DNA of 64,000 nt, from contig JAFGCT010000028.1 in assembly GCA_016932505.1 (NCBI GenBank), forward strand, positions 2,404 to 66,403, read 5' to 3'. This document shows positions 11,701-64,000 of this stretch, in pieces. How positions within the stretch are numbered: position 1 is the stretch's first letter; each line of letters begins with the position of its first letter. The notes under the pieces were generated by a model. It was not told the DNA's origin and searched no databases. It was given only the letters and a program-made list of their open reading frames with translations. This DNA comes from Candidatus Peregrinibacteria bacterium. Lineage in GTDB: Bacteria > Patescibacteriota > Gracilibacteria > UM-FILTER-43-11. A program made the translations under genes and the position numbers.

Positions 11701-11762
11701 AGTCAATTGGAAGTCAATTGGAAATATGATATCGTTATTTCGTTATTTCGTTATTTCGTTAT
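11701..11762. repeat. tandem 11-mer agtcaattgga x2 followed by 8-mer cgttattt x3.7
   Basis: Read directly from the sequence. The 11-mer recurs in reverse complement at 62288-62340. Confidence 0.85.
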
Positions 11763-11771
11763 AAATTATAA

Positions 11772-12599
11772 ATGATTGGTATATTCGATTCAGGTTTTGG
11801 CGGGCTTACAGTAATGAAGGAATACTTAAAAAAGTATCCTGAGTTTGATTATATGTATTTAGGAGATCAGGCAAATATGCCTTATGGAAGTCATTCTAAA
11901 GAAAGGTTGAACAAATTAGTTGTTCAGAATGTTGATTTTTTGGTTAATAAAGGATGTAAACTCATTATTATTGCCTGTAACACCGCTTCAGCGGATGCAC
12001 TTAGGCATGTTCAGAATATATATAAAGGTAATCCTACTATACTTGGCGTTTTGGTTCCTGCGGTAGAGAATTCCTTAAAAGAAACAAGGTTTGGTAATAT
12101 TGGTGTTATTGGTACTCGCGGAACAATCAATAGCAATGCCTATAAACGAGAAATTGAGAAATATGAAAATGACTTATATAAACCCACTGACAAACGGGCT
12201 AGAGAATCTGTAAAACTATATCAGCAAGCTTGTCCGCTATTAGTGCCCTTAGTAGAAGAGGGATTAATTAAAGCAACGGTAACCCGAATGATTTTAAAGA
12301 ACTACCTTAGACCGCTTAAAAACGCTCACATAGATACTTTAATACTTGGATGTACTCACTATCCCCTACTTCAAAAAGAAATTACTAGAATAATGGGTAA
12401 AAACTGCAAGATTATTTCTTCAGCACAGGCGGCTACTTATGCCATAGGCAGTTACTTTGAAAATCACCCAGATGTTCTGAATTTAATTACAAGGAATGGA
12501 AAACGCACCTATTATACAACAGACTGCCCAGAGAGATTTGCAGATTTAGGAAAAAGGTTTTTAGGTGAAGTGATTGTAGGTGAAAAGGTGGAGATTTGA
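11772..12599 (+). CDS. murI: glutamate racemase
   Basis: IGIFDSGFGGLTV, IIACNTASA and LGCTHYP motifs, with both catalytic Cys contexts. Confidence 0.9.
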   Translation: MIGIFDSGFGGLTVMKEYLKKYPEFDYMYLGDQANMPYGSHSKERLNKLVVQNVDFLVNKGCKLIIIACNTASADALRHVQNIYKGNPTILGVLVPAVENSLKETRFGNIGVIGTRGTINSNAYKREIEKYENDLYKPTDKRARESVKLYQQACPLLVPLVEEGLIKATVTRMILKNYLRPLKNAHIDTLILGCTHYPLLQKEITRIMGKNCKIISSAQAATYAIGSYFENHPDVLNLITRNGKRTYYTTDCPERFADLGKRFLGEVIVGEKVEI

Positions 12600-12716
12600 G
12601 ATTTGTGATTTGTGATTTGTGATTTGAGACCTGCCTGCCGGTAGGCAAGGTTTGTGATTTGAGATTTGAGATTTGAGACCTGCCTGCCGGTAGGCAAGGT
12701 TTGTGATTTGAGATTT
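12593..12716. repeat. heptamer gatttg(t/a) array containing a 49-bp direct duplication, each copy carrying a GC-rich hairpin core
   Basis: gatttga/gatttgt units start at 12593. gagacctgcctgccggtaggcaaggtttgtgatttgagattt is present at 12626-12667 and 12675-12716. The cores cctgcctgccggtaggcaagg are at 12630-12650 and 12679-12699. Confidence 0.9.
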
Positions 12717-12741
12717 GTCATTTATAAAATAAATCAGTTTT

Positions 12742-12776
12742 AAAAAAACCCTTCGATATACATCGAAGGGTTTTTT
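12742..12776. terminator. bidirectional intrinsic terminator between murI and the SLH gene
   Basis: aaaaaaa-cccttcgat-atac-atcgaaggg-tttttt. Confidence 0.8.
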
Positions 12777-12789
12777 AGTTTGTTTGGTT

Positions 12790-14232
12790 TTATTTCATAC
12801 CAAGGATTTTAACTACTATTTTCGCAACTTCTGCGCGAGTAATCCGTTTTCCAGGTCCGAATGTGCCATCTGGGTAGCCTGCAACAATGTCATATGTCTG
12901 TGCATAGCCAACGTATCTAGCAAACCATGCGTTCTCATCTACATCAGGGAAGTTAGGAATTGAGTCATCTGAACCTAAGCCAGCTGATAATAAAAGAATC
13001 TTTAAGGCTTCAGCACGGTTAACTTTTCCATTTGGACTAAATACATTATTTTCATATCCTTTAATAATTCCTTTTTCTTTAGCTGCAATTATATAAGGAG
13101 CATACCAAGATGAAGTAGATACATCCGCAAAAGGAGAATAAGTTGCAATAGGATCTATAGAAATTCCAAATGCTTTTGTAGCGATTTTTGTAAGTTCAGC
13201 TCTTGTAATTTCATCGTTTGGAGCAAATACACCTTCTGATTTACCGCTTACAATACCTAGTTCATAAATCTGTTTAATATAAGCCTCTGCCCAGTGACCT
13301 GCAATATCATCAAAGCCCATAATTGTCTTAACTGCTTTTTCTACCGGACTCTCAGTCTTTTTACTATTATCCATCCACCATGTACCGCTACCAGAGCTTC
13401 CTCCTGAAGGAGTAACAGCAGTAGTAGTTGTAGTGGTTCCACCACCAGAAGTATAAGCAGCAAATGAAGAAGCTGCACAAGTATAGATTACCAACTGACC
13501 ACCACTAGCAGTAGCGGAAGTAGCCATAGGACTTGCTACACCATTTGTACAACTGGCAGCAGGACTTGTTGAAAGACTGCTTGTTGAGAAACCTTCACCG
13601 TAATGTTTTACAGTTATATAAATTGAAGTGCCATCTGGTACACCTGGGACAGGGATTGTAATCTGAACTGGGATATTGAATAACAATTTATAACCGATAG
13701 AACCAAAATCTAATGAAGCAAGTAATGTATTACTTCCTAGCTGTGAAGATAGAATTGTACCAACCCCTGCTCCAATTGCTGAAGCGTTAAATGTTCCTCC
13801 TCCACTTTTTGTAATCTGTAAACCAGAAGGAAGTACAATAGTAGCACCACCTGAGCTAAATGCAACAGTACTCGTCATAGTAGCTGATGTTGCAGCGGTA
13901 GGAGCACCTACTATAGTTGCCTCACCTGAACCAATGCTTGTAACAGTAGTTGGATTGCTATAATTGTAATACCCTTTAGCGTTTGAAGTTGGACTATAAT
14001 TATAAGCATAACCATAACCCCAACCCCAACCTGCAGAACCATAACCATAACCATAAAGGAATGACCCTGGACTAGCTGCGCTACTGTATGGATCCGGTGA
14101 AGTAGCACGCCAAAATGCGGCAAAAGTGCCTGGAGACAGCATAGTAAAGACAAGTGCAAACATTGTAATGGTTGCAAATACTTTTCCAAGTGCCTTTTCG
14201 CTTTTGAAAAAGTCTTTAAATAACTTAGACAT
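12790..14232 (-). CDS. SLH-domain cell-surface protein (three C-terminal SLH repeats)
   Basis: N-terminal signal/TM segment. Gly/Tyr/Trp low-complexity stretch (GYGYGSAGWGWGYGYAYNY). Thr-run linker (GGGTTTTTTAV). Three SLH-like repeats (FDDIAGHWAEAYI..., FADVSTSSWYAPYI..., FPDVDENAWFARYV...TRAE). Confidence 0.85.
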   Translation of the reverse strand: MSKLFKDFFKSEKALGKVFATITMFALVFTMLSPGTFAAFWRATSPDPYSSAASPGSFLYGYGYGSAGWGWGYGYAYNYSPTSNAKGYYNYSNPTTVTSIGSGEATIVGAPTAATSATMTSTVAFSSGGATIVLPSGLQITKSGGGTFNASAIGAGVGTILSSQLGSNTLLASLDFGSIGYKLLFNIPVQITIPVPGVPDGTSIYITVKHYGEGFSTSSLSTSPAASCTNGVASPMATSATASGGQLVIYTCAASSFAAYTSGGGTTTTTTAVTPSGGSSGSGTWWMDNSKKTESPVEKAVKTIMGFDDIAGHWAEAYIKQIYELGIVSGKSEGVFAPNDEITRAELTKIATKAFGISIDPIATYSPFADVSTSSWYAPYIIAAKEKGIIKGYENNVFSPNGKVNRAEALKILLLSAGLGSDDSIPNFPDVDENAWFARYVGYAQTYDIVAGYPDGTFGPGKRITRAEVAKIVVKILGMK

Positions 14233-15888: not shown

Positions 15889-16402
15889 TGATTTGCATCT
15901 TCTTTATGCGGTATTCTCTTATTTGTGCAAGTATTAATATTATAAGAAAAATGTATGCGTAATCCGCGATTGCCTTTGCCTGCATATCTTCTTTTAGTAT
16001 TAAAAAAATCAAACTATAACAAAGTAGCACTACTGCAAACAATGCAGATATACGACTATCGAGAACATAAATAAATGAAAAAAGAAAGTAAGCCCAGGGC
16101 AGAATTAATAACAAAGGAAGTTCCTTAAACCAAATAAAAAGTAATCCTACTATAATACCTATAATAAGAATAACAAATAATTTTGGTGCTTTATAATTTT
16201 TTAGCAGATAATCCACAAATACCTTCCTCTTAATTCTATTTATCACATAAGGGAGTAGTAAAAGAAGGATAAAAGAGAATAGATAAACCAATGAGTTATT
16301 ATAAAAATTTCCTCCGGCAAGAATGCCGACTACCGACTTAATCAAAAACACTACAACTGCAATACCTAAGATGATTTTTATAAAACTATTCATATTTAAC
16401 AA
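15881..16402 (-). CDS. small polytopic membrane protein
   Basis: Five hydrophobic segments. Overlaps the downstream gene by 8 nt, which is operon-style packing. Confidence 0.55.
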   Translation of the reverse strand: MLNMNSFIKIILGIAVVVFLIKSVVGILAGGNFYNNSLVYLFSFILLLLLPYVINRIKRKVFVDYLLKNYKAPKLFVILIIGIIVGLLFIWFKELPLLLILPWAYFLFSFIYVLDSRISALFAVVLLCYSLIFLILKEDMQAKAIADYAYIFLIILILAQIREYRIKKMQINE

Positions 16403-16608
16403 CGAGATGACGAGATGACGAAATTACGAAATTACGATACAACACCCTTTGGAAATTTACAATTTCTAATTACTAATTTCTAATTAAATCCCAATTAAAC
16501 AATTACTGAATTTCCAATGTATTAATTTGGCATTGGACATTGGTCATTCATTAGAAATTAGAAATTGTAAATTAGAAATTATTCTCCTATACTCTGTACC
16601 GCATAATT
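16403..16608. repeat. divergent intergenic region composed almost entirely of short tandem/inverted repeat families
   Basis: cgagatga x2 and cgaaatta x2. ttacaatttctaattactaatttctaatt versus attagaaattagaaattgtaaattagaaatt (inverted). ttggcattggacattggtcatt is the reverse complement of the tgtccaa family seen at 7595-7615. Confidence 0.85.
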
Positions 16609-40916: not shown

Positions 40917-40926
40917 ATTAAATTAT

Positions 40927-40989
40927 CGTTATGCGTTATGCGTTATGCGTTATGCGAAGTGCGCAGAACGCAAATCGCAAAGCGAAATA
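40927..40989. repeat. nine consecutive heptamers phase-locked on a leading CG
   Basis: cgttatg x4, then cgaagtg, cgcagaa, cgcaaat, cgcaaag, cgaaata. Confidence 0.85.
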
Positions 40990-41930: not shown

Positions 41931-41936
41931 AATTTT

Positions 41937-42028
41937 CGTATTGGGGATCGTATTGGGGATCGTATTGGGGATCGTATTGGGGTTAAGTCATTCCATTCGA
42001 GCGCCCATTCGAGCACCCATTCGATTTT
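41937..42028. repeat. two 12-mer arrays: cgtattggggat x3.8 and cattcgagc(g/a)cc x2-3
   Basis: Read directly from the sequence. The array runs up to the stop codon of the downstream epimerase gene. Confidence 0.9.
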
Positions 42029-45709: not shown

Positions 45710-45823
45710 GATGTGTTTTTTTATTTTATGTGATTATTCTACTACAAAAAATTTTATATTACAAAATTACAAAATTAATTTGTGATTGGTTTTATTGTAG
45801 TATTAACAATCATCATATAAAAT

Positions 45824-45858
45824 AATCTTGTAATAACTAATCTTGTAATCTTGTAATA
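45824..45858. repeat. aatcttgtaat 11-mer units (x2.7) directly upstream of trmD
   Basis: The same unit, or its reverse complement attacaagatt, occurs at 59946-59956, 61055-61100 and 61216-61257. Confidence 0.85.
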
Positions 45859-46509
45859 ATGCAATTCCACATTCTCACCATCTTCCCCGAAATGTTTAAA
45901 GGCTTCCTAAACGAATCCATATTAAAGAAAGCTCAGGGCAAAGGTGTTGTTGATATTCAGATTCACGATATTCGCGAATATTCAAAGGACAAGCATAAAA
46001 AAACTGATGACACTCCTTATGGTGGTGGTGCGGGCATGGTGTTTACACCTCAACCGCTTTTCGACTGTATTGAGGACGTGAAGAAAATGGCGACAAAGGC
46101 TCCAGTGATATATTTAACTCCAGGAGGAAGGCGCTTAACGCAAGCTGGCGTAGAGCACTTGAACAAAAAATTTACTCAACTGATTCTTTTATGCGGACAC
46201 TATGAAGGAATAGACCAGAGAGTTATTGATGAATTGGTGGACATGGAAATTTCTATCGGCGATTACGTTTTAAGCGGTGGTGAAATACCGGCGATGGTTT
46301 TAGTGGATGCAGTTAGTAGACTTGTACCGGGTGCGCTTGGAAATGATGAATCCCATATGGAAGAATCATTCACTAAAAAGCTTGGACGCAAAAAAGAATA
46401 TCCTCATTACACAAAACCTGCCGACTTTAGAGGCTTTAAGGTGCCGGATGTTTTAATGGGTGGTAATCATGCGGAGATTGAAAGGTGGAGGAAGAATCAT
46501 TTGAGATGA
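45859..46509 (+). CDS. trmD: tRNA (guanine37-N1)-methyltransferase
   Basis: FHILTIFPEMF, PYGGGAGMV, LLCGHYEGIDQRV, SIGDYVLSGGE. Confidence 0.95.
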   Translation: MQFHILTIFPEMFKGFLNESILKKAQGKGVVDIQIHDIREYSKDKHKKTDDTPYGGGAGMVFTPQPLFDCIEDVKKMATKAPVIYLTPGGRRLTQAGVEHLNKKFTQLILLCGHYEGIDQRVIDELVDMEISIGDYVLSGGEIPAMVLVDAVSRLVPGALGNDESHMEESFTKKLGRKKEYPHYTKPADFRGFKVPDVLMGGNHAEIERWRKNHLR

Positions 46510-48829: not shown

Positions 48830-48856
48830 GAAGGTCGCGCACCGTGCGCGACCTTC
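48830..48856. repeat. GC-rich 12-bp-stem palindrome, related to the one at 61143-61182
   Basis: gaaggtcgcgca-ccg-tgcgcgaccttc, preceded by a duplicated ccccgaagg. Confidence 0.7.
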
Positions 48857-50317: not shown

Positions 50318-52189
50318 ATGCAAGACCCAAACCAACACCCACCTCAACACCCAAAATTCAAACCACCAAAAAGGAATAATAGTTTTATGTATGTCCTTAT
50401 TTTCGCTTTGATTCTTACAATTATTTATTACGCGACTGGGCCAAAAAATGTTAATGAAGATACGGCTCTTACCGAAATTCCGATTAGTCAATTGGTTCAG
50501 GAATACAGAGACGGACAGTATTCAGCTATTGAGGTTAAAAATAGTAAAATATACGCGACTAATAATGAGCAAAAAGAATTTTTAGCTTATCGTCCGGAAG
50601 GAGAAAGTATTAAAGACCTTGGACTAAATGAGCAGGGCAACCCAACACCCATTACAATTATAAGCACAGAGGCAAGCGCCTTTTGGCTTAATGTTCTTTC
50701 AAGCTGGTTACCTATAATTCTATTTATTGCGCTTATTATTTTTATGGCTAAACAGCTTGGAAAAGGGGCGAACAGCGCATTTTCATTTGGCAAATCTCAA
50801 GCAAAAGTCTATTCAAAAAATGGAAAACACAAAACAACTTTTAAAGATGTTGCAGGAATGGAAGAGTCTAAAGATGATTTAGTTGAAGTTGTGGACTTTT
50901 TAAAACACCCTAAAAAATACACTAAGATTGGAGCTAAAATTCCTCGAGGAGTATTACTCGTTGGAGCTCCTGGAACAGGTAAAACATTACTTGCTCGAGC
51001 TGTTGCCGGTGAGGCAGGTGTCCCCTTCTTCAGTATTTCCGGTTCTGAATTTGTGGAAATGTTTGTCGGTGTAGGTGCTAGTCGTGTAAGAGATTTATTC
51101 CAAAAGGCAAAGAAAAATGCGCCATGCATAATCTTTATAGATGAAATTGATGCGGTTGGTCGTCAGCGTGGTTTTGGAATGGGTGGCGGACACGACGAAA
51201 GAGAGCAGACGTTGAATCAGATCCTTACAGAAATGGATGGTTTTGAGAATGAAACAAATGTAATTGTAATGGCTGCAACCAATAGGCCAGATGTACTGGA
51301 TGCCGCTTTAATGCGACCAGGACGTTTTGACAGACGTGTAATTATTGATATGCCCAATCTTGTCGACCGTGAGGCAATTCTAAAAGTTCACGCACGTAAC
51401 AAACCACTAGATAAAAGTGTAGATTTAAAGAGTGTAGCTAAACAGACACCTGGGTTTTCCGGTGCAGATATTGAAAATCTTATTAACGAAGCAGCTATTC
51501 TGGCTGCAAAAAATAATAGGAATAAAATAATGCATTCTGATTTGGAGGCTTCTATTGAAAAAGTCGGGCTTGGTCCTGAAAAGAAATCACGCAGACTTTC
51601 CGATGAAGAAAAGAAAATCACCGCTTATCATGAGGTCGGTCACGCACTTGTGGGTAAATTACTACCTGGTTGTGACCCCGTACACAAGGTTTCTATTATC
51701 AGTAGAGGCATGGCTCTTGGTGTTACTTGGTTTTTACCGGAAGAAGATAAGCATCTAAAATCAGTTTCTAAATTCAAAGATGAATTATGCTCATTACTTG
51801 GAGGTTATATGTCCGAAAAACTTACCTTTGGTGAAGTAACCACAGGAGCGAGTAGCGACTTACAACGTGCAACCGAGATTGCAAGAAGCATGGTGATGGA
51901 TTATGGAATGAGTGAAGACCTTGGACCTGTAATTTTTGGTCAAAAATCAATGGCCAGATTCTTAGGTGCAGACCTTGGCTCAAAACCAAATTATAGTGAG
52001 GAAGTAGCAGCAAAAATTGATAATGCTGTTTCCAAAATTCTTACTGATGCTCAGGAAAAAACTGAAAACCTTCTTATTAAAAATAAAGCGCTTCTTAAAG
52101 AGATTGCGGAATCACTACTTAAGAAAGAGGTTTTGGATAAAAAAGAGTTTGATAGTTTTTTTCCTAAAGAAAAGACGAAGAAGAAATAA
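50318..52189 (+). CDS. ftsH: ATP-dependent zinc metalloprotease FtsH
   Basis: [16 protein letters not shown], the SRH region and the HEVGHAL zinc site. The N-terminus ([18 protein letters not shown]) is encoded by a cacc/caa-type repetitive stretch. Confidence 0.95.
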
Positions 52190-52229
52190 TTTGTGATTTG
52201 TGATTTGTGATTTGTGATTTGTGATTTGT
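52188..52229. repeat. pure direct heptamer array: aatttgt + gatttgt x5
   Basis: Read directly from the sequence. It starts at the ftsH stop codon. Confidence 0.95.
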
Positions 52230-52690: not shown

Positions 52691-52775
52691 GTAAGCAAAT
52701 TGATGAGCAAATTGATGAGCATATTGTACAATCGGCTCCTCAATCGGCTCTACAATCGGCTCTACAATATGAATC
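52691..52775. repeat. two 12-mer arrays: gcaaattgatga x2 and caatcggctc(t/c)(a/t) x3
   Basis: Read directly from the sequence. Confidence 0.85.
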
Positions 52776-54319: not shown

Positions 54320-54422
54320 AATTTGAAATTTGTGAATTGAGATTTGTGATTCTTTTTTGTTTATTGTATTTTTGTCATGTCCTATAAATAAATTCACAAA
54401 TCAAAAATCACAAATCAAAAAT
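54320..54422. repeat. inverted gatttgt-family arms
   Basis: aatttgaaatttgtgaattgagatttgtgattc (54320-54352) versus aaattcacaaatcaaaaatcacaaatcaaaaat (54389-54422). Confidence 0.85.
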
Positions 54423-55902: not shown

Positions 55903-55995
55903 GGGATTATTAGAATTATTGAGATTATTGGGATGATTGAGATGTTTATAGCATTTCCCAATAATCATAATAATCCTAATAATCTCAATAATCAC
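55903..55995. repeat. inverted arrays of the gattattgN 9-mer (same family as 1994-2080)
   Basis: gggattattagaattattgagattattgggatgattgagatg ... cccaataatcataataatcctaataatctcaataatcac. Confidence 0.9.
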
Positions 55996-56005
55996 AACAA
56001 AATAA

Positions 56006-56752
56006 ATGAACAAAAATATAAAAACAGAAGGAATAATTCTTAGACGCATTAACCTAAATGATGCGGATCAAATTGTAACTGTACTTACAAAAGATATGGG
56101 TAAAATTGCGTGTATGGCAAAAGGTAGTAGGAGGACAAAAAGTAAATTCTGTGGAAGACTGGAAATGTTTTATCAGGTTAAAGTCGCTGCTTTTCAGGGT
56201 AGAAACTTGGGCTACTTGGATGAAGCTGAACCGATTATTCATAGAAAATTTCACGATGCATGTCTACGCTCAAAAAGCATTCTTTTCTATATTGCAGAAC
56301 TAACAAACAGGCTTATTCAGGATGAACAGCAGATTGATGGTGTTTATGAATTAATGCTTAATGCACTGGATCAAATTGAAAAGAACAATGAAAAAAGTGA
56401 TTTGGTTTTATATGCCTATACAATTAAATTACTTGGAATGCTTGGGTTTATGGCACCGTGGGATAGGTGCGCAAGAAGTAACGTATCACTTAATCTTTCC
56501 GAACCATTATTTTTAAGCCTTCATGATGGAAGCGTAATTCGAAGCGGTTATAATACTTCAATAGACCCACGCCTAACTCCCCCACTTATTAAATGGGTAA
56601 ACTATATGCAAAAGGCAAATTTTTCAGATATTGTTAACGTTGCCCCTAACAAAGGTGAAAAAGTTCAGGTTTGGTTTTTGATAAAAACAATGCTGGAAAA
56701 TATTTTGAGTAGCCCAATTAAATCAGAGGAATTTTTGAGTATGGTGGGGTAA
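56006..56752 (+). CDS. recO: DNA repair protein RecO
   Basis: EGIILRRINLNDADQIVTVLTKDMGKIACMAKGSRRTKSKF (N-terminal OB-fold region). Confidence 0.8.
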   Translation: MNKNIKTEGIILRRINLNDADQIVTVLTKDMGKIACMAKGSRRTKSKFCGRLEMFYQVKVAAFQGRNLGYLDEAEPIIHRKFHDACLRSKSILFYIAELTNRLIQDEQQIDGVYELMLNALDQIEKNNEKSDLVLYAYTIKLLGMLGFMAPWDRCARSNVSLNLSEPLFLSLHDGSVIRSGYNTSIDPRLTPPLIKWVNYMQKANFSDIVNVAPNKGEKVQVWFLIKTMLENILSSPIKSEEFLSMVG

Positions 56753-56816
56753 TATTTAGCATTTATCATTTAACATTTGATATAGCTTATAACATTTAAT
56801 TTTTAATTTCTATTTT

Positions 56817-57167: not shown

Positions 57168-57195
57168 TTGCAAAAAGATTGTGGTTTGATAAAAT
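57168..57195 (+). promoter_or_regulatory. sigma70-like promoter candidate for tRNA-Gly
   Basis: ttgcaa, a 16-nt spacer, then taaaat, ending 13 nt before the tRNA 5' end. Confidence 0.45.
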
Positions 57196-57208
57196 TCCAT
57201 AGCACCTT

Positions 57209-57285
57209 GCGGGTGTAGCTCAGTTGATTAGAGCGCTGCCTTGCCATGGCAGAGGTCGAGGGTTTGAGTCCCTTCACCCGCTCCA
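57209..57285 (+). tRNA. tRNA-Gly (anticodon GCC), CCA encoded
   Basis: Hand-folded cloverleaf: acceptor gcgggtg/cacccgc, D stem gctc/gagc, anticodon stem ctgcc/ggcag with loop ttGCCat, T stem gaggg/ccctt, discriminator t, then cca. Confidence 0.9.
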
Positions 57286-59942: not shown

Positions 59943-59956
59943 TATTTATTACAAGA

Positions 59957-61051
59957 TTAGACATTAAATTTAAAATGCATAATATCCCCATCTTTAACAA
60001 CATATTCCTTACCCTCCATACGCATTTTCCCTTTTTCTTTGGCTGCAACTTCACTTCCACAATCTACAAAATCCTGATAACTAATTGTTTCCGCTTTTAT
60101 AAAACCTCTTTCGAAATCCGTATGAATAACACCTGCGGCCTCGGGAGCTTTTGCGCCTATACGAACTGTCCATGCTCGGTTTTCCTGCTCACCAGCAGTA
60201 AAGTAAGTTTGCAGACCAAGTAAGCGGTAGGCGGATTTTATTACTGCATTTAATCCACTTTCTTTTAAACCTAATTCTTTCAGATATTCTTTTGCTTCTT
60301 CGTCTGAAAATGAGACCAAATCCTCTTCTACTTTAGCAGAAATAGGCAATATTTCTTCAAAATTACCTAAATTAAGGTCTTTTTTTACCTTTTCTGCATC
60401 AAAATCAGCTAATTGGCTTTCTTTTAGGTTTGCAATATATAAAAACGGCTTATTTGTAAGCAAAAACAATGATTTTACAAATTTTTTCTCCTCATCTGTG
60501 AATTCCATGTTAATCACGAGTTTTTCGGCTTCCAGAGCCTCTTTTAACCGACTTAACGTACTAGTATTCTTTATAAGCTCTTTGTCACCGCTTTTGGCCT
60601 TTTTCTCGGTCTCAGAGAGCTTCCTTGAAACAGTATCCAAATCTGCCAATATTAACTCCAAATGAATAACGTCCATATCAAGTTTTGGGTTTATTCCACC
60701 ATGAACATGAATAACATCCGGATCTTCAAAAAAGCGAATTACCTGAGCGATTGCATGACATTCACGTATATTTGCGAGGAATTTATTACCAAGCCCCTCC
60801 CCTTCTGATGCGCCTTTTACAAGCCCTGCAATATCTACGAACTCAACAACGGCTGGGATAGTTTTTTTTGGCTTAACAAGCTCTTCCAGCTTCTTTAGGC
60901 GTTCATCTGGAACCTCTACAATACCCACATTAGGATCTATTGTACAGAATGGGTAGTTTTCCGCTTGAGCGCCTTTTGTACGTGTTAAAGCGTTAAAAAG
61001 TGTTGATTTTCCTACGTTTGGCAGACCGACGATACCGATTTTTAGGGACAT
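59957..61051 (-). CDS. ychF: redox-regulated ATPase YchF (Obg-like)
   Basis: [19 protein letters not shown]...TIDPNVG... and the C-terminal TGS-like region. Confidence 0.95.
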
Positions 61052-61262
61052 AAATTATTACAAGATTAATTATTACAAGATTAGTTATTACAAGATTATT
61101 TTATATTATGATTGGTGATACTACAATTGAAACCGATTATTTCCTTCCGAAGGCGCGGTGCCGGCACCGCGCCTTCGGAAGGTTTGTTTATTTGATGTAT
61201 AACCAATCACAAATAAATCTTGTAATCTACTAATAAGCGAAGTGTTAATCTTGTAATAATCC
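61052..61262. repeat. composite element: attacaagatt x3 arm, a central perfect 40-nt GC-rich palindrome, and an inverted aatcttgtaat x2 arm
   Basis: Left arm 61055-61100. Palindrome ccttccgaaggcgcggtgccggcaccgcgccttcggaagg at 61143-61182. Right-arm units at 61216-61226 and 61247-61257; the latter encodes the last codons and stop of aroD. Confidence 0.9.
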
Positions 61263-61952
61263 CCAAGCCTCTTTCAACTCCCCCACTGTTAATTGACCCG
61301 GTGCGGATGATTTGGATTTGGATATTGGCGCAAACATAATTGTACCACCAAGGGTAGGAGTAAGAATTCTGGAAAGGGCGCCTTTTTTACCCATAGCAAT
61401 GATTATATGCGGGATTTTTTCGGCTTGTAGATGCTTTGCCAATGAAATTGCCTGAATAGTATCTGCGTAAGTTTTTGCCATAACCGAAATCTTGACGATA
61501 CACGCCCCGGCGCGCAGGTCTGCGCCCTTTTTCTTCATTTCTTTAGCTTTTTTTAAAAGGACGGATAGTGAAGGTGTTTTTTTGAAGTTATGATATGAAA
61601 GAATGATTTTTGATTTTTGATTTGTGAATTGTGATTTTAAATCAGAAATCCCAAATCTCAAATCACAAATGTCCAAAGGTAAATCTATATATTCGGCTCC
61701 GTTCTTAGATGATTCAGTAAGTAATTTTAAGACTTCTTTATCACTTCCTTTAAAGCATCCCATTTCGTTAGGTTTTTTACATACACAAATTACCGGTAAG
61801 GGCTTGTTTTTAAGCAATTCAGCTATATCCAAATCCTTAATATAATCCAGCCAGATTTCCGCCATGTCGGCATGTTTTTTTGCCAAGACCATAGCCTTTT
61901 TTGCCTCTTTCATTGTTTTTGCCTGAATTGGAATACATAATTTAATTTTCAT
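61245..61952 (-). CDS. aroD: type I 3-dehydroquinate dehydratase
   Basis: LCIPI..., AEIWLDYI, ILSYHNFKKTP, KISVMAK (Schiff-base Lys context), IIAMGKKGALSRIL, SAPGQL. Confidence 0.85.
   Translation of the reverse strand: MKIKLCIPIQAKTMKEAKKAMVLAKKHADMAEIWLDYIKDLDIAELLKNKPLPVICVCKKPNEMGCFKGSDKEVLKLLTESSKNGAEYIDLPLDICDLRFGISDLKSQFTNQKSKIILSYHNFKKTPSLSVLLKKAKEMKKKGADLRAGACIVKISVMAKTYADTIQAISLAKHLQAEKIPHIIIAMGKKGALSRILTPTLGGTIMFAPISKSKSSAPGQLTVGELKEAWGLLQD
61606..61672. repeat. intragenic inverted heptamer array (gatttgt family) inside aroD
   Basis: gattttt gattttt gatttgt gaattgt gatttta | aatc agaaatc ccaaatc tcaaatc acaaatg. It is translated in frame as ...ICDLRFGISDLKSQFTNQKSK.... Confidence 0.85.
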
Positions 61953-62042
61953 TTATCATTTTTCAATTATCATTTAATGAGAACAATATTAATATTAAAT
62001 GTTAAATGACAATTATTAAATGACAAATGTGTTTTTATTCAC

Positions 62043-62071
62043 TTGACAAAATACCGATTATACGATACAAT
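62043..62071 (+). promoter_or_regulatory. near-consensus sigma70-like promoter
   Basis: ttgaca (62043-62048), a 17-nt spacer, then tacaat (62066-62071). Confidence 0.55.
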
Positions 62072-62287
62072 TCACATCCAAACATCACGTTTGGGTGCCT
62101 GTTATTTGGGCACTATTGATCATTTAAAACATTGGAAGTAAGGGAAATCTTTACAATATTCCGCTTAAGTAAGCCTGTTCTGATTTTTTACCTATGGTAA
62201 GAAAAACCGGAAACGGGCGCTTGTGAATATATAAATACTTCCCTACGCAATTACTAAGTTGATTGGCAATACCAAGTAAAATACCCC

Positions 62288-62340
62288 CCATTGACTTCCA
62301 ATTGACTTCCGTAGACCTAGTCAATAGGACGTCAATCGGA
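62288..62340. repeat. inverted arrays of the attgacttcc / gtcaat unit (reverse complement of the 11701-11722 family)
   Basis: ccattgacttccaattgacttcc-gtagacc-tagtcaataggacgtcaatcgg. Confidence 0.85.
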
Positions 62341-62451
62341 AATTTATAGGGAAAAAAGTATCTTATTTAGTATTGCCATCAACAAATAAACAAACCTGCT
62401 TGCGTGCAAGTGGGAACTGACCCGGAAACGGGAAAGGAAAGGAATTTAGTC

Positions 62452-63390
62452 ATGAAAAAATGTAACAACAAAACAGGAGGAGGAGCCATGTTTACGAAAC
62501 TCTCAACCGCGGTCTTTTTGGCCGCAATGTTCTTCGCGTTCAGCAACTCTGCCAGCGCCGCCTACTGCGACCGCTACGAAGGAGGCGAGGCAGACAAATG
62601 CGGTAGCGGAATGTCGCAAGCCAAAGCCCTCCCGGGCTACGGCGCTATGACCTCAGCCACAGCCAAAGCCCCCTGCGAAGCGGCGAGAGCCAACGCGCTG
62701 GACCAATGTACCATGAAAGCCGGCGGGTCTGATGCCTTTATTGGCGGCTGCAAGAAAACCGTCAAAGCCTACAAGTGCCCCGATGGCGGACCTGTTACAG
62801 TTTCCGCAGTCTGTGGAAACGGGAAGTGCGAAAAGGGCGAGACCAAGAAGAATTGCCCGAAAGACTGCGGTTCGACACCTCCCCCAGTGGTGAGGAAGGG
62901 CAAAAAGTGCGGAAACGGGGTATGTGACGCAAGCGAGGATTTCGCCACCTGCCCGGAGGACTGCCACTGCGGTGACGGCACGTGCGACCCCACGATCGAC
63001 GAAACGTTCTGCACCTGTGCAGACGACTGCAAAGATTGTCCCGAAGGCTGTGAGGGGGCCGAGCCCCCGCCGTGCAGCGACTGCATGGAAGAAGCATTGA
63101 AGAAGTTCTGGGAAGAACACGTTCAGTGCCAGGACAGCACGAGTACCTATCATACGGTTCTCAAGACCATGGGATGCGAGGGCTTCTTCAAAGCCAACAA
63201 GCTGACTTTCTACTCACCCCCGAAAGTCGATATGGAAGCCATCGCCAAAGCAAGTGCCGGCAACGGCTCCATCCCCAGATGGTTCGTCATCTTCGTCACA
63301 GTCGCTCTTTCCCTCAGCTTCCTCTGCCTGCTCATCCTCGTCTTCCGTAAAAAGAAGAACCCGAACACCACCGGCGGTAGCAACCGGTAG
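62452..63390 (+). CDS. GC-rich gene: secreted Cys-rich repeat protein with C-terminal TM anchor (start 62452 or 62488)
   Basis: RBS-like aaggaaagga / ggaggagg upstream of the two ATGs. Signal peptide FTKLSTAVFLAAMFFAFSNSASA. Three CG(N/D)GxC...C(P)xDC modules. C-terminal WFVIFVTVALSLSFLCLLILVF-RKKK. Hand GC count is 37/60 (62521-62580) against 17/60 (62101-62160). Confidence 0.7.
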   Translation: MKKCNNKTGGGAMFTKLSTAVFLAAMFFAFSNSASAAYCDRYEGGEADKCGSGMSQAKALPGYGAMTSATAKAPCEAARANALDQCTMKAGGSDAFIGGCKKTVKAYKCPDGGPVTVSAVCGNGKCEKGETKKNCPKDCGSTPPPVVRKGKKCGNGVCDASEDFATCPEDCHCGDGTCDPTIDETFCTCADDCKDCPEGCEGAEPPPCSDCMEEALKKFWEEHVQCQDSTSTYHTVLKTMGCEGFFKANKLTFYSPPKVDMEAIAKASAGNGSIPRWFVIFVTVALSLSFLCLLILVFRKKKNPNTTGGSNR

Positions 63391-63482
63391 TAATTGCGTT
63401 TCCGCGCTTTAAACGCGGATACGTTCAATGTTCTAATGTTAACGTGGGGCAAGGCCAAGTGCCTTCGCCCCCTCTAACCCCT

Positions 63483-63521
63483 CAGGGATCATCGCTTTAC
63501 GCTTTGGTCCCTGTTTTTTTT
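63483..63521 (+). terminator. intrinsic terminator after the GC-rich gene
   Basis: caggga...tccctg stem followed by 8 T. Confidence 0.7.
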
Positions 63522-63530
63522 GTCTGGATT

Positions 63531-63692
63531 GCGATTAACGATTAACGATTTACGATTTACGTTGTACGGGGGGGGTTGTGATGGGTGGATTGGAATTACA
63601 TCAAATACACATTTATCAGTAGAGACGCGATTAATCGTGTCTCTACGGTATTAAATCGTTAATCGTACAACGTTAATCGTAAATCGTATAAC
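63531..63692. repeat. composite element: CG-anchored heptamer arm, a central hairpin, and an inverted arm
   Basis: gcgattaacgattaacgatttacgatttacgttgtacg (63531-63568). gtagagac-gcgattaatcgt-gtctctac (63619-63646). attaaatcgttaatcgtacaacgttaatcgtaaatcgtataac (63651-63692). Confidence 0.9.
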
Positions 63693-63725
63693 AAAAAACC
63701 CCTCACATTCCTGCAGGGGGTTTTT
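63693..63725. terminator. bidirectional intrinsic terminator
   Basis: aaaaaacccct...agggggttttt. Confidence 0.6.
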
Positions 63726-63750
63726 ATCTAAATATTAAACTTACTTTCTA

Positions 63751-64000
63751 CTATTCATATTCGTTGCCATCTAGCAAACTTGCAAAAAAGCCTTTCTTTT
63801 TTTGGGGCGCAGATGGCGCTTGTGAAGCACCAGAACCTCTTAATTGTGCTAATAATTCATCAATTGTTTTTGACTGAGTTGCATTTTGAAGCTCAAGTTC
63901 TCTTACTCTATCCATATTTTCCACAGCAAGCTTTTTCTGCTCTGCTTTTGTAGATTCTAATTGTTCAATTTTACGCTCAAGTGCCACTTTTTCGTTTTCC
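63751..64000 (-). CDS. coiled-coil protein, 5'-partial (frame open to window edge)
   Basis: The frame of ORF 63751..63987 stays open to nt 63999 (…ENEKVALERKIEQLE…). Heptad-like charged sequence. Confidence 0.55.
   Translation of the reverse strand, partial: ENEKVALERKIEQLESTKAEQKKLAVENMDRVRELELQNATQSKTIDELLAQLRGSGASQAPSAPQKKKGFFASLLDGNEYE

Follow-up and report, generated by a model that had tools for sequence, protein, structure and literature searches.

The spacer between aroD and ychF in a contig of an uncultured Peregrinibacteria-like bacterium appears, judged from its sequence and its relatives, to be one copy of a lineage-specific intergenic cassette that shows nested dyad symmetry and is built from separable modules. 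The stretch in question, positions 61052–61262 of the 64,000-nucleotide piece of contig JAFGCT010000028.1 (assembly GCA_016932505.1) analysed here and referred to as the window, comprises the entire aroD–ychF spacer together with the final five aroD codons; both genes lie on the minus strand. Within it, copies of the 11-mer AATCTTGTAAT (the unit; ATTACAAGATT on the opposite strand) are placed in inverted orientation on either side of a GC-rich palindrome. We tentatively favour, as a possibility that falls short of being probable, the reading that the cassette supplies a promoter plus a leader, in which the units would serve as an unstructured ribosome-loading leader independent of a Shine-Dalgarno (SD) sequence, and the inverted arms and the palindrome would fold read-through RNA.

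Unit Arrays and Nested Arms

Nine exact copies of the 11-mer are present in the window, reading ATTACAAGATT on the plus strand at 59948, 61057, 61072, and 61087 and AATCTTGTAAT at 45824, 45839, 45847, 61216, and 61247. If one mismatch is allowed, 19 matches are found versus 4.7 ± 2.3 in 100 shuffled sequences, none of which had as many. On the coding strand, AATCTTGTAAT lies directly 5′ of three well-supported starts, those of ychF, the alpha-glucan phosphorylase gene downstream of it, and trmD, and the N-termini of all three proteins agree with their families. The ychF start is preceded by three units (61057, 61072, and 61087, a 15-nt tandem repeat) followed by AATTT and the ATG. In the 14-nt junction between ychF and the phosphorylase gene, the TAA of a single unit is the ychF stop codon, and AAATA separates the unit from the phosphorylase ATG. 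At trmD, the units on the plus strand (45824–45857) end 1 nt 5′ of the ATG at 45859. An earlier, sequence-only reading of the window had described three units and two inverted ones bracketing the palindrome, a further unit in the ychF/phosphorylase gap, and units directly before the trmD ATG. The five units of the spacer were recovered as exact copies and the trmD units lie where they had been placed, 1 nt short of the start codon; the junction unit is likewise present, with its coordinates corrected from 59946–59956 to 59948–59958.

The two units on the aroD side form an arm directed into the 3′ end of aroD. Their inter-unit spacer AGCGAAGCGTT is found again in three other sequences (L025, L054, and L066) and, as the variant AGCGCAGCGTT, in L073. 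The outermost arms of the dyad (61054–61069 and 61245–61260) are 16 nt long, 100% complementary, and span 207 bp. Nested inside them is a second pair of AT-rich arms that the sequence-only reading had missed (61106–61131 and 61187–61212; 26 nt, 77% complementary). The aroD-side half of this pair, CCAATCA then CAAAT, also occurs at 45778–45790 of the window, in the trmD spacer of the related metagenome-assembled genome (MAG) JAUXDO (L081), and in the ychF locus of the same MAG (L128).

The spacer upstream of trmD in the window holds a paralogous cassette consisting of reverse variant units (45758–45777), TTTGTGATTGG, a predicted promoter (45795–45823), the sense units, and the ATG. It has both arms and both boxes and no palindrome. 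The common order, reverse units, ATTTGTGATTGG, a centre, CCAATCA-..-TATAAAAT, sense units, ATG, is found at four places: the aroD–ychF and trmD spacers of the window and the trmD and ychF–RNHCP spacers of JAUXDO. More generally, 17 of 26 start-proximal arrays have antisense units 40–160 nt upstream, and a GC hairpin lies between the inverted arms in just 3 of these 17 spacers.

The Palindrome and the aroD End

The palindrome at the centre of the dyad is perfect, with a 20-bp stem without mismatch as the earlier reading had stated, is 75% GC, and lies 62 nt after the aroD stop. It occurs once in the window, accompanied by one related hairpin, GAAGGTCGCGCACCGTGCGCGACCTTC. This hairpin, one of just three perfect GC-rich ones with 9 bp or more that the 64 kb contain, shares the GAAGG..CGCG design, again in agreement with that reading. 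Two relatives were found elsewhere. L081 carries a variant palindrome, CCGAAGGCGCGCAAGTGCTTGCGCGCCTTCGG, flanked by units and by the TGATTGG/CCAATCA boxes. A Joint Genome Institute (JGI) contig, L207, which was the single contig returned by a metagenome scan for the palindrome, carries an exact 32-nt copy, without units and with the same CGAT(T/A)TATT flank. This copy lies in frame inside an open reading frame (ORF) encoding an IS200-like Y1_Tnp protein (Pfam E = 3.5e-9) and does not flank that ORF. The CGAT(T/A)TATT flank is kept in all three copies, and no GTAG or GTGG head was found in the flanks of the three. The 28-mer palindrome core was absent from the species-representative genomes, in which a flank-plus-palindrome pattern gave 63 matches, L081 being the only palindromic one. 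A Y1 homologue was not detected in the window by tblastn. In Logan unitigs, the 40-mer palindrome (depth 187) and the unit run (depth 224) form separate high-depth nodes; a copy number cannot be estimated from these depths because a relative present in the sample at about 130× has the same arrays. The palindrome appears to be a dispersed and separable module.

L207 has two further features, at 720–749 and 1476–1514. The palindrome lies between the HUH region and the C-terminal part of the Y1_Tnp ORF, and CACAAAT repeats, a family also present in the window, lie inside the adjoining ORF, which by eye we take to be ribD-like.

The outermost aroD-side unit encodes the end of aroD, as had been noticed from the letters. 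The protein terminates in ...AWGLLQD* in the window and in ...AWSLIKK* or ...AWSLIKQ* in relatives, at identical length; the unit therefore overwrote the last codons and was not inserted. Ends of the LLQD* or LLQN* type are found in four unrelated ORFs of three genomes (aroD of the window and three ORFs of two others), and in several further cases units lie 0–8 nt after stop codons. In at least five same-strand junctions, the TAA of the unit, or a TGA finishing on its first base, is the stop codon of the upstream gene, which leaves no space for a separate promoter in the gap. The reuse of units as gene termini is thus a recurrent property, as the sequence-only reading had proposed. In L069 and L107, a noncoding RNA following the units was considered and ruled out, since the units adjoin the 3′ end of a convergent ORF.

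Taken as a whole, the sequence-only reading was right that arms and palindrome far exceed chance and that they occur together elsewhere, namely in L081. Its description of one composite element does not hold: the palindrome is missing from the trmD cassette of the window, the L207 copy stands without units, and hairpins are found in few of the inverted-arm spacers. The modules are separable, and for the left arm a ychF 5′ leader following a promoter is a better explanation than a structural role.

The palindrome does not qualify as a canonical intrinsic terminator for aroD. Like such terminators it places a strong GC stem-loop after the stop codon, but the minus-strand tail is AAAUAAUCGGUUUC, and the U-tract is missing on the aroD strand, as the earlier reading had also observed. 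The T-rich tail, UUUGUUUAUU, is on the plus strand only, where no gene enters from upstream.

Placement of Units across Genomes

Species-representative genomes were scanned for two units 1–12 nt apart, and the counts that follow are those among the matches listed. The matches fall into two classes. The first consists mostly of (AATCTTGT)n-type octamer repeats in Bacteroidota, Ignavibacteriota, and other phyla, and the second of Peregrinibacteria-like MAGs with arrays of 15-nt period followed by an ATG (JACRIE, JAUXDO, PFOK, JAHIYT, JAHJBZ, and two genomes labelled "bacterium"). The exact 11-mer is kept in at least five MAGs labelled Peregrinibacteria or Patescibacteria group and in the two labelled "bacterium". 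In the Peregrinibacteria-like class, the ATG of a long ORF in the sense orientation lies within 15 nt of 24 of 57 unit clusters, and one in the antisense orientation near 2. In other phyla the corresponding numbers are 6 and 2, of 105. Strand-specific placement close to starts is therefore peculiar to the lineage. The modal gap between unit and ATG is 5–6 nt, and gaps of 1–4 and 9–14 nt are also common. Judging from the translated N-termini, the genes with 5′ units are presumably mostly housekeeping and translation genes, among them aminoacyl-tRNA synthetases, rplU, nusA, clpP, trmD, and ychF. The idea of a single phenomenon spanning all phyla was rejected, as elsewhere the 11-mer pair mostly lies in (AATCTTGT)n octamers that have no association with start codons. 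Octamers of the (nAATCTTn)n type are frequent between the genes of Bacteroidota, Ignavibacteriota, Calditrichota, and others (L001–L115), with no clear start bias.

SD-like motifs precede predicted starts in 4 of 56, 0 of 52, 1 of 45, and 1 of 50 cases in the genomes sampled, and positions −13 to −1 are A-rich with 4–12% G. Candidatus Peribacter riflensis has been described as SD-scarce and without CCUCC (PMC10783764), and ribosomal protein bS21 is often missing in Peregrinibacteria (PMC9297842). A new SD/anti-SD pair at the 16S 3′ tail was rejected because the published Peregrinibacteria tails, GAACACUUCCUUA and GAACAUUCCCUUA, which stem from other genomes, fail to pair with the unit: with duplex energies of about −0.9 to −1.0 kcal/mol, it binds them less well than shuffled leaders do. 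Among species-representative genomes, TTACAAGAT was seen to follow a 16S 3′ region in Falsibacillus and one Thermodesulfobacteriota MAG only. The units thus share with an SD element the short distance 5′ of starts (5–6 nt) and the sense-strand placement (24 versus 2), and lack the pairing to 16S rRNA.

A separate observation concerns the spacer of the right arm. There, UAAGCGAAGUGUU (61232–61246) is a near-perfect complement of the Peribacter-type 16S tail GAACACUUCCUUA, with one bulge and −12.9 kcal/mol versus −3.5 ± 1.7 in shuffles, perhaps by chance. AGCGAAGCGTT-related spacers between units of other MAGs sit about 30 nt from the ATG.

A Proposed Promoter and Leader at ychF

The arrays of ychF and trmD are each immediately preceded by a 29-mer; the two, TTGTAGTATCACCAATCATAATATAAAAT and TTGTAGTATTAACAATCATCATATAAAAT, are nearly identical and both of the form TTGTAG-N17-TAAAAT. 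Sequence homologous to this promoter is found in L081, and L128 keeps TTGTAG-N18-TAAATA, 7 nt from the ychF ATG and without units. We take TTGTAG-N17-TAAAAT as the probable ychF promoter; clear promoters of the TTGACA/TATAAT type exist elsewhere in the window. With a promoter in this place, transcripts would include the units as a leader. The ychF leader alone is essentially unfolded (−1.4 kcal/mol, z +2.0). Unit-bearing initiation regions fold less than others in the same loci (−2.3 versus −4.6 kcal/mol; z +0.83 versus −0.02; p < 0.001), a comparison made with 21 unit-bearing leaders that are mutually non-independent. The minus-strand RNA running from the aroD end to the ychF start is predicted to form a single hairpin (−92.7 kcal/mol, z −11.3) that pairs two of the leader units, the final base of the ychF start codon, and the codons that follow.

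Two observations on other promoters may be added here. At a tRNA gene (window 57168–57282; tRNA at 57209), TTGCAA-N16-TAAAAT ends 13 nt before the mature 5′ end, which provides a useful non-coding example of the promoter type seen at ychF. Bacteroidota-type promoters combine a −33 TTTG with a −7 TAnnTTTG box, the TTTG being located 19–21 nt upstream. A promoter of this kind was rejected for the units, as TAATCTTG resembles the −7 box but the spacings are only 7 or 15 nt.

The following sequence of events can be proposed. The ychF promoter, flanked within the dyad by the palindrome and the left units, would give rise to transcripts carrying three AAUCUUGUAAU units as a leader of about 40 nt that is A/U-rich, G-poor, and unstructured and ends 5 nt from the AUG. 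In an SD-poor lineage, the units may then act as a ribosome-loading (standby) leader, as their position, orientation, and folding suggest, and the unit at the ychF/phosphorylase junction may play the same role for the downstream cistron. The GC palindrome would be an independent hairpin inserted at the dyad centre that most likely marks or stabilises the end of the aroD transcript. More speculatively, the two inverted units on the aroD side might turn aroD read-through RNA into one long hairpin, in which case only ychF mRNA initiated at the promoter would be open for initiation; the long duplex might also be a site for RNase III or for termination. A role at the level of translation is favoured because of the position of the units, their strand bias, their placement in junctions, the lack of SD motifs, and the low folding. 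A stricter variant, which we consider unlikely, holds that AAUCUUGUAAU is a dedicated strand-specific initiation signal that replaces the SD sequence in a branch of Peregrinibacteria devoid of the CCUCC anti-SD and is read by a ribosomal protein or by rRNA other than the 3′ tail. Inverted copies of it at the 3′ termini of the genes upstream would then mask it in read-through RNA.

Several points weigh against a promoter-plus-leader cassette. About 11 of the unit clusters are found touching or overlapping the 3′ ends of convergent genes, where there is no ATG for them to act on, and certain units flank hairpins in direct orientation. The ychF orthologues of other species have other tandem repeats (CGCAGTCCATT ×4, GCAATTCTTAT, and TTAGTCC were seen) or none, and the exact unit is therefore dispensable for ychF expression. 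With 8 of 12 consensus positions matched, the ychF promoter falls below the threshold of the scan tool and was not called. Weak folding is partly automatic for A/U-rich direct repeats, and the leaders compared do not count as independent cases. The metatranscriptomes of the source study offered only thin contigs inside ychF and the phosphorylase gene, nothing at trmD, and no readable transcript ends, so that the leader role is inferred. Finally, the outward-pointing geometry of the units also fits the ends of a transposon.

Alternative Explanations

In line with this last point, the arms could be read as the termini of a non-autonomous mobile element, similar to a miniature inverted-repeat transposable element (MITE) or mini-transposon, with outward arrays of 11-bp transposase sites and an outward promoter, tolerated at gene boundaries as an SD sequence is not needed in these genomes. 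The 16-nt perfect terminal inverted repeats, the size of 207 bp, and the outward-pointing arrays in 17 of 26 cases are all what such an element would show. So is its distribution: the cassette sits at non-orthologous sites in two genomes and is missing from the orthologous aroD–ychF spacer of the closest relative (L128), where it is present after ychF instead, although the two spacers cannot otherwise be aligned and aroD has not changed in length. Species share the exact 11-mer but differ in which orthologous loci carry it, assemblies break off in the arrays, and arrays intrude into ORFs. Against this stands the lack of a target-site duplication at either copy in the window (flanks ..CATAA / CCCCA.. 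at ychF/aroD and ..TTTAT / ATG at trmD). The copies also differ in unit number, spacing, and internal sequence, aroD has exactly its ancestral length, the internal ychF promoter is homologous to the promoter of the unit-free L128 at the same locus, and the DNA examined has no transposase enclosed by inverted arrays. A mobile origin seems unlikely to us. An entirely passive origin of the arrays, as functionless minisatellites that arise by replication slippage and hairpin-templated (quasi-palindrome) correction and spread until coding selection stops them, would account for the many other 7–15-nt tandem arrays that occupy the same positions of the window, often as inverted pairs, for the unrelated repeats in orthologous spacers, for the intrusion into ORFs, and for the aroD end, which was overwritten at constant length as templated conversion predicts. 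Drift, however, fails to explain why the exact 11-mer is kept across species, and the orientation bias of 24 to 2 and the modal gap of 5–6 nt are left unexplained, which makes this view very improbable.

Two further proposals place the function of the unit in transcription or its control. The unit might be recognized, as DNA by a repressor or activator or as RNA by a binding protein, and such a sequence-specific regulator would control a set of housekeeping and translation genes. The set of genes served (read by eye from N-termini), the exact 11-mer in at least five Peregrinibacteria/Patescibacteria-group MAGs and two labelled "bacterium", and the location of units at or just past the −10 element, a typical operator position, are compatible with this proposal. 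It is nevertheless improbable in our estimate: unit spacing varies (8, 15, 22–25, and 31 nt) without helical phasing, ychF has a unit in just 2 of 8 close relatives with a readable upstream region, and many genes have different tandem repeats in the same position. Alternatively, the units could be core promoter elements of short-leader or leaderless mRNAs, with TGTAAT, or TAATCT in T+unit, as a −10 box about 6 nt before the ATG. A TAnnnT peak is indeed found 6 nt before the ATG (21 of 203 starts versus about 9 expected), which suggests that there are leaderless genes, TGTAAT too is most frequent at that distance, the −10 element of ychF in L128 is 7 nt from the ATG, and TTGTAA-N18-TGTAAT can be drawn in some arrays. 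On the other hand, the essential −11 position of TGTAAT is a G, in a window that also holds clear promoters of the TTGACA/TATAAT type, distances of 1–4 and 9–14 nt are common, a −35 element is missing for the single unit in the 14-nt gap between ychF and the phosphorylase gene, and both ychF and trmD have a better promoter ahead of their arrays. We therefore regard a core promoter function as distinctly improbable.

Comparison with Known Systems

The aroD–ychF cassette resembles several described repeat systems and differs from each. With REP/BIME elements and REPIN-RAYT systems it shares short GC-rich extragenic palindromes that form mosaics with motifs of alternating orientation just after stop codons, hairpins in read-through RNA, and a palindrome copy (32 nt) on a contig encoding an IS200-like (Y1) protein. 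On the other side, one copy of the palindrome was found in the 64 kb and one variant in the representative genomes; it lacks a GTAG/GTGG head, the L207 copy is inside the Y1 ORF and not beside it, and the arms consist of direct tandem repeats rich in A/T, a feature foreign to REP elements. Correia elements, the MITEs of Neisseria with outward promoters and RNase III-cleaved hairpins, are comparable in size (about 100–200 bp) and terminal inverted repeats, adjoin gene starts and ends, can supply promoters, and form a long hairpin if co-transcribed. In contrast to these, the cassette shows no TA target duplication, its ends are variable 11-mer arrays, its internal sequence is not conserved as a unit, and its overlap with aroD keeps the protein length. 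SD-independent initiation, exemplified by S1-dependent enhancers and Bacteroidota-type regions, likewise involves SD-poor, A-rich, G-poor, weakly folded starts, and the spacing between motif and AUG is like that of an SD sequence; the described examples are biases in composition, whereas here an exact 11-mer recurs in tandem across species. Finally, the short tandemly repeated repetitive (STRR) heptamers of cyanobacteria and intergenic minisatellites are also short, mostly intergenic tandem repeats with several unit families per genome, but the arrays described here are strand-oriented to gene boundaries, abut start and stop codons, and form inverted pairs.

Genomic Context and Other Repeat Arrays

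The contig originates from a sediment metagenome. YchF is 74–84% identical to proteins from MAGs labelled Peregrinibacteria, Peribacteria, or Patescibacteria group, and the host appears to be a Peregrinibacteria/Peribacteria-like uncultured bacterium. The aroD product scores 129 bits against TIGR01093, slightly below the curated cutoff of 139. An Rfam scan gave no match at gathering scores; relaxed E-values produced generic hairpin matches only, far below threshold. The coordinates of the features are collected in Table 1.

Table 1. Features of the aroD–ychF spacer and related elements (window coordinates)
Feature	Position	Strand	Remarks
Three AATCTTGTAAT units, 15-nt period	61057–61097	−	Proposed ychF 5′ leader, ending 5 nt before ATG 61051
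Predicted sigma-70-like ychF promoter	61098–61126	−	TTGTAG (61126–61121), N17 with CCAATCA, TAAAAT (61103–61098)
Inner AT-rich arm, ychF side	61106–61131		TGATTGG on plus strand; overlaps promoter
Perfect GC-rich palindrome, 40 nt	61143–61182		20 + 20 nt, no loop, 20-bp stem
Inner AT-rich arm, aroD side	61187–61212		CCAATCA then CAAAT ("Q half")
Two outward-pointing units (61216–61226, 61247–61257)	61216–61257	+	CTACTAATA plus AGCGAAGTGTT between them; "orphan" arm
Final five aroD codons and stop (GLLQD*)	61245–61262	−	Encoded by antisense unit
Single sense unit, 14-nt ychF/phosphorylase junction	59948–59958	−	5 nt before phosphorylase ATG 59942
Paralogous cassette without palindrome	45758–45857	+	Spacer between S-layer-homology gene and trmD
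Related GC hairpin GAAGGTCGCGCACCGTGCGCGACCTTC	48830–48856		GAAGG..CGCG design in common; no units nearby
ychF	59957–61051	−	ATG at 61051; TIGR00092 match, E = 7e-143
aroD, type I dehydroquinase-like	61245–61952	−	Stop at 61245; TIGR01093 match, residues 5–230

Many other spacers of the window have 7–15-nt tandem arrays of their own before ATGs, often with inverted arrays after the previous stop and long hairpins. Such arrays precede starts at 1994–2077, 11732–11762, 16402–16581, 40923–40963, 41936–42024, 52189–52229, 52694–52768, 54323–54422, 55905–55994, 56750–56778, and 61945–62030. Their unit families include AATAATCnn, TCGTTATT, CGCATAA, CCCCAATACGAT, ATTTGTG, CAATCGGCTCTA, and TAACATT, several of which occur at more than one locus. 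Array-bearing spacers fold strongly (z −7.1 at 55905–55994, −5.9 at 63500–63720, and −7.6 at 12590–12800). Since orthologous spacers contain unrelated repeats, it is the repeat style that is conserved, and most unit sequences are not. AATCTTGTAAT is unusual in this respect, being common to several species, unlike most array units.

Arrays are also found within genes. Inverted arrays of the ATTTGTG family (TGATTTT ×5 / AAATCAC ×4.6) lie inside aroD at 61604–61670 and encode ...DICDLRFGISDLKSQFTNQKSKII...; the aroD family model aligns end to end despite these internal arrays, so that repeat arrays can occupy coding sequence. Between convergent genes, a 49-nt module made of (TTTGTGA/TTTGAGA)n and the GC hairpin CCTGCCTGCCGGTAGGCAAGG is repeated 2.5 times (12602–12723), followed by a canonical bidirectional terminator at about 12745–12780. 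A second composite of the same design as the aroD–ychF spacer, with inverted CGATTAA arrays around the GC hairpin GTAGAGACGCGATTAATCGTGTCTCTAC (fold z −5.9), is located at 63532–63688 and has a very high unitig depth in the source metagenome (mean up to 683). The surrounding region (62001–64000) has a GC content of 47% versus about 35% elsewhere and a strong TTGACA-N17-TACAAT promoter at 62043. The ORF at 62404–63390 had no NCBIfam match, and no Rfam RNA family was found in 62001–64000.

Implications

Logan and MAG contigs (L116, L048, L090, and L029) often end inside unit arrays; the unit repeats therefore fragment assemblies of the lineage, and arrays can mislead the calling of gene starts in such MAGs. 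For the question of how start codons are chosen after the loss of SD/anti-SD pairing, in uncultured Peregrinibacteria and the Candidate Phyla Radiation (CPR) among others, an exact 11-mer shared across species, 5–6 nt from starts and in intercistronic junctions, constitutes a concrete candidate signal. If the arrays are mobile or self-propagating, repeat cassettes would carry promoters and leaders to gene boundaries and rewrite C-termini, as in LLQD*, in compact genomes.

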